A stretch of 64,000 bases of DNA, from the NCBI RefSeq assembly GCF_056746865.1, contig NZ_CM163382.1. One strand, written 5' to 3'. Below the pieces are notes generated by a model. That model made no database searches and was not told the origin of the DNA. It worked only from the letters and a program-made list of their open reading frames with translations. The first letter of the stretch is position 1. The number at the start of each line of letters is the position of its first letter. Both the position numbers and the translations under genes were made by a program. Below are positions 31,435 through 36,151 of the stretch, piece after piece.

Positions 31435-31470
31435 TACACATCATATACAATGACTCTGGAGGAAACTGTT

Positions 31471-32121
31471 TTGGCGATTCGTCTTCACAAACTGGCTGTT
31501 GCTTTAGGTGTCTTTATTGTTAGCGCTCCTGCCTTTTCGCATGGTCATCACTCACACGGCAAACCCTTAACAGAGGTCGAACAAAAAGCTGCTAATGGTA
31601 TTTTTGATGATGCCAATGTACAAAACCGAACGCTCAGTGACTGGGATGGAGTCTGGCAATCCGTTTATCCTTTACTGCAAAGTGGCAAACTTGACCCCGT
31701 CTTTCAGAAGAAAGCGGATGCAGATAAAACTAAAACATTTGCTGAAATTAAAGATTATTATCACAAAGGTTATGCAACAGATATCGAGATGATTGGCATT
31801 GAGGACGGCATTGTTGAATTCCATAGAAATAATGAAACAACATCCTGTAAATATGATTACGATGGATACAAAATACTCACCTATAAATCAGGCAAGAAAG
31901 GCGTTCGTTACTTATTCGAATGTAAAGATCCTGAAAGCAAAGCCCCTAAATATATACAATTTAGCGATCATATAATTGCACCACGAAAATCATCTCATTT
32001 TCACATTTTTATGGGTAATGATTCACAGCAATCTTTATTAAATGAAATGGAAAACTGGCCAACGTATTATCCATATCAGTTGAGTAGCGAAGAAGTGGTC
32101 GAGGAAATGATGTCTCATTGA
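31471..32121 (+). CDS. zinT: Periplasmic zinc/cadmium-binding protein ZinT (YodA)
   Basis: ORF 31450..32121; probable TTG start at 31471 after GGAGG; His-rich mature N-terminus HGHHSHG. Confidence 0.88.
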
Positions 32122-32463
32122 GTATTCTCATGATAACGCCTCGATGCCGCTTTAGTAAGTCATCATAACTGCCACTGGTCCATCCACAAACGCCACTGAA
32201 CGCAAGCTAGCTACAGACACGCTCATCACTATGACGTGTCTGTATATTAATAAGCTAACCCGCATTGAGTTAACCAATAACGGATTCCATACACAATACG
32301 GCCAACAGAGAAAGATACCTGTGCTCACGCCATTGCTTATATTGGCTGGTTACAATGTGCACTATCAATTTTTTAAATAACAAATTCTTAAAACCACATC
32401 TGTATAAGGATTTTTTAAGGTTCGTGGGATAGCTTGACTGTAAAAATTACAGGAGCTACAAAA

Positions 32464-32994
32464 ATGAACCGATTCTCAAAAACTCAAATTTATTTACATT
32501 GGATAACGCTGCTTTTCGTTGCAATAACCTATGCCGCGATGGAACTCCGTGGCTGGTTTCCTAAAGGTAGTAGTACTTATCTGCTGATGCGAGAAACACA
32601 TTACAATGCGGGTATATTCGTTTGGGTGTTAATGTTTTCACGCCTGATTATAAAACACCGTTATAGTGATCCTTCTATTGTACCACCGCCACCTGCCTGG
32701 CAAATGAAAGCGGCTTCGCTAATGCACATCATGCTTTATATAACCTTCCTTGCACTTCCTCTGCTGGGGATTGCTTTAATGGCTTACAGTGGAAAATCGT
32801 GGAGTTTCCTTGGTTTCAATGTGTCTCCCTTTGTTACCCCAAACAGCGAAATTAAAGCACTGATAAAAAATATTCACGAAACCTGGGCAAATATAGGTTA
32901 CTTTTTAATCGCAGCTCACGCTGGCGCAGCACTCTTTCATCACTACATTCAGAAAGATAATACTCTGTTACGAATGATGCCTCGCCGCAAATAA
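32464..32994 (+). CDS. yodB: Cytochrome b561-family protein YodB
   Basis: 176-aa product from MNRFSKTQIYLHW. Confidence 0.9.
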   Translation: MNRFSKTQIYLHWITLLFVAITYAAMELRGWFPKGSSTYLLMRETHYNAGIFVWVLMFSRLIIKHRYSDPSIVPPPPAWQMKAASLMHIMLYITFLALPLLGIALMAYSGKSWSFLGFNVSPFVTPNSEIKALIKNIHETWANIGYFLIAAHAGAALFHHYIQKDNTLLRMMPRRK

Positions 32995-33563
32995 GTCGAT
33001 CCCCTGACAAGGAAATGTGAACCATAGACATCAACGCGTCATAAATGTTTACGCAAGTGCACAATGCACCCTTTCCACTATCAACAAGGAGGAGCAGAAA
33101 CTGTGTAAATCGTACAATGGTAAGACTTATCAAAAATACAGGTTAATTTTGGCATTTAAACCTTTTTTACTTGTTAGTATGATACAAAGGCTTTCAAAAA
33201 AGCTGGGAAATTCAACAACTCTTGGAAATTATGGACTTTGTCCCGCGGCTTTAATCTGACGGCCGCGTTCCTTTTTTGACTCAATTATTGACCCCTTCTC
33301 TACGCAACTTCAGTTCCCACCACCAACTTTGCGGCAGTTTCATAGGATGAATGTCTAAAAGAATAATGGTGAGCGATAAGAAAACGACTGAATAACTGCA
33401 CATTTTCGCTCGAAAGCTTCCTGTCAGATCCATAGCGAATCAAGTGCTGAATGTCACAGTATCGAACAGAAAACAGTGACGATCTAACCCTTCAAGAATA
33501 TTCTACGATTGTTCTGTTTAGGAAAAGCAAGGCGGGAAGTCGGGAGATAAGTCATTGATAAAG

Positions 33564-33653
33564 TGGCGGAGAGAGGGGGATTTGAACCCCCGGTAGAGTT
33601 GCCCCTACTCCGGTTTTCGAGACCGGTCCGTTCAGCCGCTCCGGCATCTCTCC
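33564..33653 (-). tRNA. serU: tRNA-Ser (serU-type)
   Basis: Minus-strand GGAGAGATGCCGGAGCGGCTGAACGGACCGGTCTCGAAAACCGG...CTCTCCGCCA with long variable arm, 90 nt. Confidence 0.92.
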
Positions 33654-33746: not shown

Positions 33747-34544
33747 ATGATTAAGTGGCCCTGGAAAGTACAAGAATCAGCACATCAAACTGCCCTTCCC
33801 TGGCAGGAAGCACTATCGATCCCCCTTTTAACGTGTCTGACGGAACAGGAACAAAGCAAATTAGTCACTCTTGCCGAACGTTTTTTACAGCAAAAGCGGC
33901 TTGTTCCTTTACAGGGCTTTGAACTGGATTCATTAAGAAGCTGCCGGATAGCACTTCTATTTTGCCTACCCGTTCTGGAGTTAGGACTGGAATGGCTGGA
34001 TGGTTTTCATGAAGTCTTAATTTATCCTGCGCCATTTGTGGTCGATGATGAATGGGAAGACGATATCGGTCTGGTGCATAACCAACGTATTGTTCAGTCA
34101 GGTCAGAGCTGGCAGCAAGGGCCTATCGTTTTGAACTGGTTGGATATACAAGATTCTTTTGATGCTTCTGGTTTTAACCTGATTATTCATGAAGTCGCTC
34201 ATAAGCTGGACACCCGTAACGGCGATCGCGCCAGCGGAGTTCCCTTTATTCCGTTGCGTGAGGTTGCTGGCTGGGAACACGATCTTCATGCTGCAATGAA
34301 CAACATTCAGGAAGAAATCGAATTGGTTGGCGAGAATGCGGCGAGCATTGATGCTTATGCTGCCAGTGATCCTGCTGAATGTTTTGCCGTACTTTCTGAA
34401 TATTTCTTTAGCGCCCCAGAACTTTTTGCTCCTCGTTTCCCTTCATTGTGGCAACGTTTCTGCCAATTTTATCAACAAGATCCTTTGCAGAGACTGCATC
34501 GCACTAATGATACAGACTCGTTTTCGGCGACGAATGTTCATTAA
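33747..34544 (+). CDS. mtfA: Mlc-titration factor MtfA (YeeI) peptidase
   Basis: 265-aa product from [11 protein letters not shown]; HExxH motif IHEVAHK. Confidence 0.9.
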
Positions 34545-34644: not shown

Positions 34645-34720
34645 TCCTCTGTAGTTCAGTCGGTAGAACGGCGGACTGTTAATCCGTATGTCACTGGTTC
34701 GAGTCCAGTCAGAGGAGCCA
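34645..34720 (+). tRNA. asnT: tRNA-Asn (asnT)
   Basis: 76-nt TCCTCTGTAGTTCAGTCGGTAGAACGGCGGACTGTTAATCCG...GAGGAGCCA. Confidence 0.95.
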
Positions 34721-34797
34721 GATTCAAGTTTTCATGCTTATCTGTACGTTTATATTTGTTTACGATTCAGTAAGTTAGCGTGAAAATCCTTGCCGGT

Positions 34798-34869
34798 GCG
34801 TATCTGGTTTTATCTCCGCATCGGGATAATTTGGTGGTCAGATCTGGGGTCAGTTTGGTTCGATTCTGG
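34798..34869 (+). repeat. Short direct repeats (GTATCTGG / AGATCTGG / CGATTCTGG) between asnT and the integrase start; candidate integrase arm-type sites
   Basis: Three related octamers at about 34800, 34840 and 34861, plus two GGTCAG copies. Confidence 0.35.
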
Positions 34870-34882
34870 AGTGACCCCCAAA

Positions 34883-36151
34883 ATGTCTTTAAACGATTCT
34901 AAAATCCGCAAGTTAAAATCTTCTTCCCGTCCGGTAAAACTCTCCGACTCTCACGGTCTGTATCTGCTCGTCAATCCGGGCGGTTCGCGCATCTGGTATC
35001 TCAAATATCGTTTCAACGGAAAAGAATCCAGAGTCAGTCTTGGCGCATACCCGCTGGTCTCACTGGCAGAAGCCAGGCAACAGCGCGACGGTATCCGCAA
35101 GTTACTGGCGCAGAATATCAACCCGGCGCAGCAGCGCATGGCAGAGAAAGCCGCCTGCTCCCCTGAAAAGTGCTTTAAAGCGGTGGCGGTGGCGCTGGCC
35201 TGGCACAAAACCAACAAAAAATGGTCGGCTGATTATGCCGCCCGTATTCTCGCCAGTATGGAAAACCATATCTTCCCGGCGGTTGGTCATTTGCCCGTTG
35301 CCAAACTTAAAACGCAGGATTTCACTGCCCTGCTGAGGGTTATTGAGGATAAGGGCTTTCTGGAAGTCGCGTCCCGCACGCGGCAGCAACTCAGCAACAT
35401 CATGCGCTATGCCGTATAGCAGGGGCTTACCGAAAGCAATCCGGCGCAGCATCTGGATGGCGTTGTCTCCTCCCCCGTAAAGAATCACTACCCCGCGTTA
35501 CCGCTGGAGCGGTTGTCCGAACTGCTTGGCCGCATCGGTGACTATCAGCAGGGCCGGGAGTTAACCCGGCTGGCGGAGGTGCTGACACTGCACCTGTTCA
35601 TCCGTTCCAGCGAACTGCGTTTCGCCCGCTGGAGCGAGATCGATTTCAGGCACAAAATCTGGACCATCCCCGCCACCCGCGAGGCCATCGACAAAGTTCG
35701 GTTTTCGGGGCGTGGCGCAAAAATGCGTACTCCGCATATCGTACCGCTCTCCCGCCAGGCGATTGCCCTTCTGAAACAGATACAGGAGCTTTCCGGCCAT
35801 CTGGATCTGGTGTTTCCCGGCGATCATAATCCGTACAAGCCAATGAGCGAAAACACAACCAACCGGGCGCTGCGCCTGATGGGGTATGACACGAAAACTG
35901 AAATCTGCGGGCATGGACTCAGGGCAATGGCCTGTAGCGCCCTGGTGGAGTCGGACCTGTGGTCACGCGATACGGTGGAGCGGCAAATGAGCCACCAGGA
36001 GCGCAACAGCGTGCGGGCGGCATATGTGCATAAAGCAGAGCATCTGGAGGCCAGAAAGGCCATGATGCAGTGGTGGTCGGATTATCTGGATGTGTGCCGC
36101 GAGGGGTATGTTGCGCCGTACATTTATGCCCGGCAGCATAAGGCAGCCTGA
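34883..36151 (+). pseudogene. P4-type tyrosine integrase at asnT, interrupted by a single in-frame TAG at 35417..35419
   Basis: ORFs 34790..35419 and 35513..36151 share one frame and are separated only by TAG; N-terminal SLNDSKIRKLK arm-binding-type domain; C-terminal catalytic region. Confidence 0.85.

Follow-up and report, generated by a model that had tools for sequence, protein, structure and literature searches.

The intergenic gap between yodB and serU in Escherichia coli can be read with fair, though not full, confidence as a phage-related mosaic beside the serU integration hot spot, which contains an unannotated small RNA (sRNA) gene and an arm of a phage attachment-site (attP) region and no protein gene. 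The sRNA gene, located beside this attachment arm, is probably derived from a prophage and functional. Sequence comparisons show that the promoter-to-terminator unit is conserved and homologous to units carried by prophages, and that the right part of the gap is common to phages integrating in serU. In addition, published data show that a plus-strand RNA ending at position 33277 is associated with Hfq in vivo.

Layout of the locus

The window denotes here the whole stretch of DNA that was analysed, 64,000 nucleotides from contig NZ_CM163382.1 (assembly GCF_056746865.1), and all positions refer to it unless another genome is named; numbered L labels are our handles for comparison loci. The gap extends from 32995 to 33563 and carries no annotation in the window, in MG1655 (NC_000913.3) or in PGAP-annotated genomes. 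Its length of 569 bp agrees with the gene-free interval of 570 bp that had been described in an earlier sequence-only reading of this DNA. The upstream neighbours are zinT (31450-32121) and yodB (32464-32994), and on the other side lie serU, which encodes tRNA-Ser(CGA) on the minus strand (33564-33653; ARAGORN and Rfam), mtfA (33747-34544) and asnT (34645-34720). Since yodB and serU are convergent, the gap is located downstream of both genes. The GC content of the gap is 40.4%, versus 48.2% for the window; the region had been called AT-rich, and this holds in a moderate sense. The neighbouring zinT and yodB are similar in composition.

An integrase-like open reading frame (ORF) is located directly after asnT (34790-35419), which points to an island integrated at this next tRNA gene. 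The DNA found after asnT is yeeJ in K-12 and an integrase pseudogene in strain PMV-1.

The gap was compared by BLAST with 5426 complete E. coli genomes and was matched in 5421, at full length in 3064 and only from 33117 on in the others. Its left part (32995-33116) occurs only where yodB is present, and yodB with its flanks (about 32245-33116) varies in presence between strains: neither the gene nor this segment is found in about 43% of the complete E. coli genomes. Examples of such genomes are the B2 strain PMV-1 and L202-L205, and E. albertii is also of this kind. The yodB-less strains share a zinT terminator hairpin, corresponding to 32214-32241 of the window, which is followed by about 110 bp of unrelated DNA until 33113; in PMV-1 and E. 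albertii, about 110-220 bp of unrelated sequence are found between zinT and 33113.

The order serU-mtfA-asnT is syntenic in other species, of which 78-80 serU-mtfA loci were compared. E. albertii shares DNA left of serU, and no DNA similar to the gap was found at this place in the 78 other Enterobacteriaceae loci, E. albertii excepted. Conservation across Enterobacteriaceae, which had been suggested as a check, is thus not what is seen: among the 78 species loci, the region is confined to E. coli, and E. albertii matches it in part.

Two other arrangements were observed at this locus. In E. coli UTME-3 (L003, 4110-8109), homology to the gap ends at about 33103 and is followed by an IS3-family transposase and by prophage tail-fibre, Lom and J genes, a layout indicating a second kind of insertion or rearrangement inside the gap. 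In L007-L010 (Escherichia sp. MOD1-EC7003, Escherichia sp. E1V33, E. whittamii and 'E. coli' SCPM-O-B-8794), serU-mtfA-asnT is intact and the sequence to the left of serU shows no relation to the gap. L008-L010 have a second copy of asnT at a distance of 3.3-3.6 kb, and none is found in L007. The arrangement in these four genomes suggests a rearrangement or an island at serU.

Anatomy of the small RNA unit

The block homologous to prophage-borne sRNA units, as detected by blastn and a covariance model, covers 33121-33277 on the plus strand. A consensus scan predicts a sigma-70 promoter at 33155-33183, with the -35 element TTTAAA at 33155-33160, a 17-bp spacer and the -10 element TATGAT at 33178-33183. 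The predicted sRNA of about 88 nt would begin at 33190, which is 7 nt after the -10 element, and ends at 33277, where the 3' end has been mapped experimentally. In the minimum free energy (MFE) fold, the RNA starts with the 5'-terminal hairpin GCUUU-CAAA-AAAGC (33190-33203). In the alignment this is followed by a linker of 29 nt (33204-33232), which carries the candidate seed UGGGAAAUUCAACAACUCUUGGAAAUUAU. The conserved 3' module (33233-33277), defined by its invariant stems, the MFE fold and the mapped 3' end, consists of a small hairpin, GGAC-UUU-GUCC (33233-33243), and a terminator stem, CGCGGC/GCCGCG (33244-33249 and 33262-33267), with a 12-nt loop, followed by T6 at 33272-33277. The stems of this module are invariant in 23 of the 23 aligned variants, and the z-score of the RNA fold is modest (-1.5 to -1.8).

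No Rfam 15 covariance match was obtained at 33100-33300 even at E<=10, the search of the window region returning only tRNAs and noise, and no Rfam family, MG1655 annotation or searchable paper names an sRNA unit at 33121-33277. Two further features of the sequence deserve mention. An imperfect inverted repeat, AGGTTAAT-N7-9-TTTAAACC, at 33140-33163 overlaps the -35 element, is kept in the chromosomal and the prophage units, and may be an operator for some regulator. At 33206, K-12 strains carry a G to C change in the first bases of the linker, which read GCUGCGAAAUUC versus GCUGGGAAAUUC in the other genomes sampled, so data from K-12 may describe a slightly atypical allele.

Conservation and selection

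The unit is present as a single copy in 5412 of the 5426 E. coli genomes. The window and the B2 strain PMV-1 have 100% identical copies of it, despite the lack of yodB in the latter and the presence of a separate zinT terminator upstream. Polymorphism was assessed in a small sample of 19 genomes, representing 13 distinct haplotypes, in which 3 of 123 sites from promoter to terminator (33155-33277) are variable, against 9 of 38 in the flank 33117-33154 and 22 of 156 in the flank 33278-33433. Thus, the DNA on either side of the unit varies 6- to 10-fold more per site. A Fisher test against both flanks pooled (33117-33154 and 33278-33433; 31 of 194 sites variable) gives p = 6e-5 for the unit. The same test gives p = 7e-6 for the segment adjoining serU (33434-33563), where 2 of 130 sites are variable. 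By this comparison, the promoter-to-terminator unit is under purifying selection.

In E. albertii, alignment of the zinT-serU spacer reveals that a segment of 112 bp (33167-33278), bounded by direct repeats of CCTTTTTT, is missing. The upstream half of the unit (AGGCTAAT...TTTAAACCTTTT) is retained there, and this indicates that the loss of 33167-33278 was a deletion in the E. albertii lineage and that the unit is older than the split between E. coli and E. albertii. The idea that the 112-bp indel is a multicopy repeat or a MITE was rejected, as the segment is single-copy in E. coli and its absence from E. albertii is a deletion.

Relatives of the unit in prophages

Prophage loci carry sequences related to the chromosomal unit, with about 71% identity over 157 bp in nine IMG/VR loci (blastn, E<1e-10). 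The 17-mer GGACTTTGTCCCGCGGC occurs in 72 IMG/VR contigs, about 60 of which contain it outside the serU gap. The phage-type units consist of TTTAAACCATTTTTAAAGCTTAGTAATAT, a 5' hairpin GTCTCC-TGGA-GGAGAC or variants of it, and a U/C-rich linker, followed by GGACUUUGUCC, CGCGGC...GCCGCG and a U-run, the latter elements being common to the chromosomal copy. These shared motifs are seen across 35 sequence variants. The positions of the -35 element TTTAAA and of a -10 element of the form TAnnnT are kept in all phage-type variants, in which the -10 element is TAATAT or TAGTAT, while the chromosomal one is TATGAT.

The 5' hairpin of the phage-type units shows a compensatory change, one pair being U-A in 14 variants and C-G in 7, and its structure is 98% paired, compared with 40-52% when the pairing is slid. 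The chromosomal hairpin occupies the same place and is of unrelated sequence. Similarly, the chromosomal linker differs entirely from the phage-type linker in the alignment. A covariance model of the family finds a single match in the window, at 33189-33275 with 70.9 bits, a score to be read with the fact that the window sequence was part of the model; a search with this model through the serU-mtfA loci of other species found no further copy.

The phage-type unit was found by BLAST in 504 genomes, in 109 of them over >=80% of its length; strain 120899 and W/KO11FL are among its carriers. It matches only two INPHARED records, and Rfam assigned it to no family. In annotated genomes, its neighbours are the phage tRNA-Gly/Thr genes, located downstream of Q, on one side and a lysis cassette with two holin genes on the other. 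The unit is encoded opposite to the late genes, and no co-oriented gene is found upstream of it. Phage-type units would therefore need a promoter of their own, and the chromosomal copy shares the promoter motif.

Downstream of some prophage units, additional elements were noticed. A late-strand RNA candidate in L197 (5191-5390, minus strand) is convergent with the prophage unit; it has a terminator of its own, AACCGCCGTTCCGGGCGGTTTTTTTT, and matches STnc100 below the threshold. Weak covariance-model matches (E 0.006-0.2) lie directly downstream of the prophage units in L087 (8388-8448), L198 (5123-5183) and L197 (5115-5180), and they may represent a second, degenerate unit in tandem or no more than a hairpin.

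Published transcript data and a possible partner

K-12 coordinates are obtained by adding 2,009,904 to the window coordinates. Term-seq data list an 'orphan' 3' end at K-12 2,043,181 on the plus strand (Adams et al. 2021, PMC7815308, Supp. file 1), which by the printed Term-seq sequence is window position 33277, the last T of T6. This end was represented by 2,241 reads in LB at OD 2.0 and 1,864 reads in M63, and is missing from the LB OD 0.4 list (PMC7815308). Expression of the unit is low, with about 2,000 Term-seq reads versus 6x10^5 for DsrA.

Association with Hfq is shown by two other data sets. In Hfq CLASH, the intergenic fragment ATCTGACGGCCGCGTTCCTTTTTT was recovered in hybrids with mreC (Iosub et al. 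2020, PMC7213987, file 7), and this fragment ends at 2,043,181, the same base as the Term-seq 3' end. RIL-seq lists a node yodB.serU.IGR, under the naming of Melamed 2016 (Bar et al. 2021, PMC8175672, Table S1). The chimeric fragments number 39 for exponential phase and 33 for stationary phase, and the node has a U-tract of 6 (PMC8175672). Within the chimeras this RNA invariably takes the second position, since S = 1 follows from the relation SIC = S - 1/k. The RIL-seq-based classifier assigns the node sRNA scores of 0.010 and 0.046, lower than its candidate threshold of 0.1 (PMC8175672).

The single exponential-phase partner of yodB.serU.IGR has 15 interactions and an SIC of 0.094324, equal to the ompF row of the table, and because of this match of values, from which alone the partner is deduced, it is probably ompF. 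The same two values are also shown for the partner of MicF. The linker holds CUCUUGGAAA (33219-33228), complementary to ompF +134..+143; in a windowed scan, this 10-bp match was not distinctive, since shuffled sequences did as well in 86 of 100 cases. Unconstrained prediction of a duplex between the unit and ompF returned a meaningless pairing of 84 nt.

These data could also be explained without an independent sRNA gene, an explanation that we regard as unlikely. It states that the only functional element is the terminator at 33244-33277, which ends the yodB mRNA after a 3'UTR of 283 nt, that there is no independent promoter, and that the Term-seq, RIL-seq and CLASH signals are fragments of this 3'UTR, perhaps processed by an RNase. 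Between the yodB stop codon and 33244 there is no other site resembling a terminator, so the K-12 3' end and the Hfq-bound fragments could indeed stem from the yodB 3'UTR; the low read counts and low sRNA scores are in agreement with this, and many Hfq-bound RNAs derive from 3'UTRs. However, the conserved block begins at the -35 element and not at the hairpin, the unit is perfectly conserved in the absence of yodB, where zinT has its own upstream terminator, and the same promoter motif precedes prophage homologues that have no co-oriented gene upstream. These features argue against a yodB 3'UTR as the full explanation.

The attachment-site arm beside serU

The right part of the gap (33286-33563) is an arm of 278 bp common to the attP region of serU-integrating lambdoid phages, with 96-97% identity. 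The homology continues into serU and stops at 33625, so that together with the 3' 62 bp of the tRNA gene (33564-33625, minus strand), which run from the anticodon stem-loop to CCA and form the identity core with the phages, it covers 340 bp (33286-33625) and is 97% identical to phages ev099, mEp332 and PhiR70_1. In these phages, the block is located between the integrase gene, which is accompanied by an AraC/IS moron, and the tail-fibre genes. In mEp332 and ev099 (L085/L086), about 2.1 kb with an AraC-family regulator and transposase fragments lie between the integrase gene and the attP block, and such a separation of int and att is unusual.

Similar blocks occur in 33 IMG/VR loci. The record of the SerU-LTIIb lysogen contains a partial tRNA of 62 bp between the gap and the phage tail-fibre genes, and the lysogen junctions in IMG/VR (L108, L134, L135, L138, L157 and L158) have the same order: the gap, the 62-bp part of the tRNA and then tail-side phage DNA. 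The serU gene is a known insertion site of Stx phages (PMC8065619).

The common left end of the phage copies is 33286. Other copies begin at 33279 (L188), 33249 (L191), 33402 (L185), 33343 (L177) and 33439 (L182), and the left ends of two phage copies run into or up to the sRNA terminator. These variable ends favour either a capture of chromosomal DNA or an ancestral phage in which both modules were adjacent.

Within the arm, the most conserved sub-block lies beside serU (33434-33563). With its two variable sites in 130 bp, it is as conserved as the sRNA unit, and it is 84% identical in E. albertii. No minus-strand intrinsic terminator for serU was found in the gap, where the region folds worse than shuffled sequences, and the first 78 nt of the serU trailer are rich in C over G (1.8). 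The sub-block could be a Rho-dependent terminator or contain arm sites for integrase or IHF. The repeated motifs CGATAAGAAAAC (33374) and CGAACAGAAAAC (33463), with an inverted relative at 33507-33520, hint that CGAWMAGAAAAC-like motifs are integrase arm sites, with the qualification that the motif search is circular, its pattern having been derived from the same sites.

The sequence-only reading had considered a promoter or terminator region, or an unannotated small RNA or protein, in this gap. The terminator and the sRNA are borne out: the former is the intrinsic terminator at 33244-33277 with its experimentally mapped 3' end, and the latter is represented by an RNA recovered on Hfq and by a promoter-to-terminator unit under purifying selection, with homologues in prophages. 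That the right half of the gap is taken up by homology to attP was not foreseen.

As both modules have phage homologues, the whole segment 33117-33563 might be inert debris of an old prophage, containing a decaying sRNA relic and a terminator that works by accident. The half-deletion of the unit in E. albertii without an obvious replacement, together with low expression in laboratory media, would fit such decay. Nevertheless, this is improbable, as the unit is kept in nearly every E. coli genome (5412/5426), its promoter, hairpins and linker are near-invariant between much more variable DNA on both sides, and its RNA is found on Hfq and as a member of chimeras.

The 80-codon open reading frame

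The ORF at 33017-33259 on the plus strand, with a GTG start and 80 amino acids, is present exactly as described in the earlier reading, and was judged not to be a gene on the basis of the ORF list, strain comparison and Pfam. It is one of many chance-sized ORFs in the region, which occur in all six frames. The lack of an obvious ribosome-binding site is roughly right, with the correction that AAGGA (33009-33013) lies 3 nt before the GTG, a short spacing.

Strains without yodB have unrelated sequence in place of codons 1-33, and the frame continues there as a different ORF of 109 codons. In strain L204, a 1-bp insertion shifts the frame and cuts the ORF to 26 codons, and in L205 a stop leaves 36 codons. 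Changes in the N-terminal part among yodB-carrying strains are mostly nonsynonymous, and no Pfam match was found for the ORF. The frame crosses the predicted promoter and the intrinsic terminator hairpin, and its conserved C-terminal part coincides with the RNA unit. The suggestion of an unannotated protein is thereby contradicted, with a replaced N-terminus, a frameshift and a stop in a frame that is not conserved, which is the very observation that the earlier reading had named as refuting it.

A small protein encoded by the ORF, or by the corresponding 109-codon frame of yodB-less strains, is therefore highly improbable: most of the sampled genomes have an open frame and AAGGA precedes the GTG, but the N-terminal third is non-homologous between strain groups, two strains have truncated frames (26 and 36 codons), substitutions among yodB-carrying strains are mostly nonsynonymous, there is no Pfam family, and the conserved C-terminal part is exactly the RNA unit, so that translation through an intrinsic terminator would be needed.

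Proposed origin and significance

According to the proposed model, the predicted sigma-70 promoter would drive a transcript of about 88 nt, from approximately 33190 to 33277. This RNA would be composed of the 5'-terminal hairpin, a single-stranded linker of about 29 nt, and a double hairpin with U6 of the Hfq-binding type. It would most likely be a base-pairing RNA acting through its linker, with ompF mRNA as the probable RIL-seq partner. In strains carrying yodB, the same terminator would probably also end the yodB transcript. The gene is a fixed chromosomal copy of a family otherwise found on lambdoid prophages, whose members keep the promoter and the 3' module, differ in the linker, and occupy a moron slot flanked by the Q/tRNA region and the lysis genes. 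The right part of the gap forms, with the last 62 bp of serU, a homology block of 340 bp around a crossover site borne by the tRNA gene, representing either an arm left by an old prophage or chromosomal DNA picked up by serU phages.

A more specific scenario can be offered tentatively, and we hold it to be rather less than an even chance. E. coli may have domesticated an RNA from a prophage moron slot, that is, a scaffold with a fixed promoter, a 5' hairpin, an Hfq-binding 3' module and an exchangeable seed. This scaffold would have been left beside serU before the split from E. albertii, given a new seed, and retained in all E. coli lineages as an Hfq-dependent sRNA of the core genome, which would either target ompF or act as a sponge for a core sRNA. 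If such domestication is true, the prophage relatives would be a third sequence family of anti-sRNA-like genes, beside AgvB/AsxR and Pas.

K-12 is the reference organism for small RNA biology, yet the unit is missing from the MG1655 annotation and from Rfam. In the papers searched, it surfaces without a name, as an 'orphan 3' end' and as a RIL-seq node with low scores. Were it confirmed, the E. coli catalogue would gain an sRNA common to the whole species, and there would be a clear case of a regulatory RNA of prophages that has become fixed in a core genome. The unit would also represent a modular phage sRNA scaffold with the seed swapped between copies, which would be useful for studying the evolution of sRNA specificity. 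Additionally, the 340-bp block of identity at serU is relevant to the way in which lambdoid phages, among them carriers of toxin genes, choose this site and exchange DNA with it.

Comparison with known systems

The closest parallels are found among anti-sRNAs of prophages, such as AgvB (EcOnc01), AsxR (EcOnc02) and EcOnc03 of EHEC (Tree et al. 2014, PMC4104026). The prophage homologues of the unit share the slot of AgvB and AsxR, downstream of Q/PR' in the moron region and antisense to the late transcript (L197, L198 and L087), and they converge with a late-strand RNA, like the convergent sRNA pair of Tree et al. (PMC4104026). The design is also common, with a conserved 3' module for Hfq binding and termination and a variable 5' or seed part. 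The likeness of position is a feature of the prophage homologues and does not apply to the chromosomal copy. This copy, unlike AgvB and AsxR, is chromosomal and fixed in the species, and the unit has about 80-88 nt with a 5' hairpin, whereas the AgvB/AsxR type has 51-60 nt. Identity of the unit with AsxR was considered and rejected in a comparison by eye: at the putative AsxR locus (Sakai Sp5, located by its published position), the terminator GCCCGAACCCACTCGGGCTTTTTT is unrelated to the unit, and the shared 3' region of about 42 nt was not seen.

Another related group comprises PasA, PasC and PasD of EPEC prophages, which, like the phage-type unit, are located just upstream of the holin-lysis cassette and have STnc100-like neighbours, and which are Hfq-dependent (PMC8550237; 10.64898/2026.05.13.724894). 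The Pas sRNAs combine a conserved 3' end with a divergent 5' part, and a phage origin has been proposed for them (Pearl Mizrahi 2021; Zhu, Shabalina & Storz 2026, preprint). Identity of the unit with PasC or PasD was rejected, as direct sequence comparison revealed no similarity to phage 2B8 (NC_049952), the example for pasC/pasD in the preprint. In 2B8, a terminator-like sequence upstream of the holin gene is on the holin strand, while the prophage units are on the opposite strand. Moreover, 88% of E. coli genomes, K-12 among them, have no Pas genes, whereas the unit is present in essentially all E. coli.

The right part of the gap can be compared with the tRNA attachment sites of tyrosine-integrase phages. 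Here, too, identity extends over 62 bp from the serU anticodon stem-loop to CCA, and the junctions of serU prophages are located exactly there, with the tRNA restored. The serU block exceeds the usual extent, as 278 bp of identity past the tRNA gene go far beyond what restoration of the tRNA needs.

MicL and DapZ are sRNAs that are embedded in the 3'UTR of an upstream mRNA or share its terminator. The unit resembles this type in yodB-carrying strains, where it is located in the would-be yodB 3'UTR and shares the sole terminator. It differs from it in being older than yodB and independent of it, as the unit is unchanged in strains that lack yodB.
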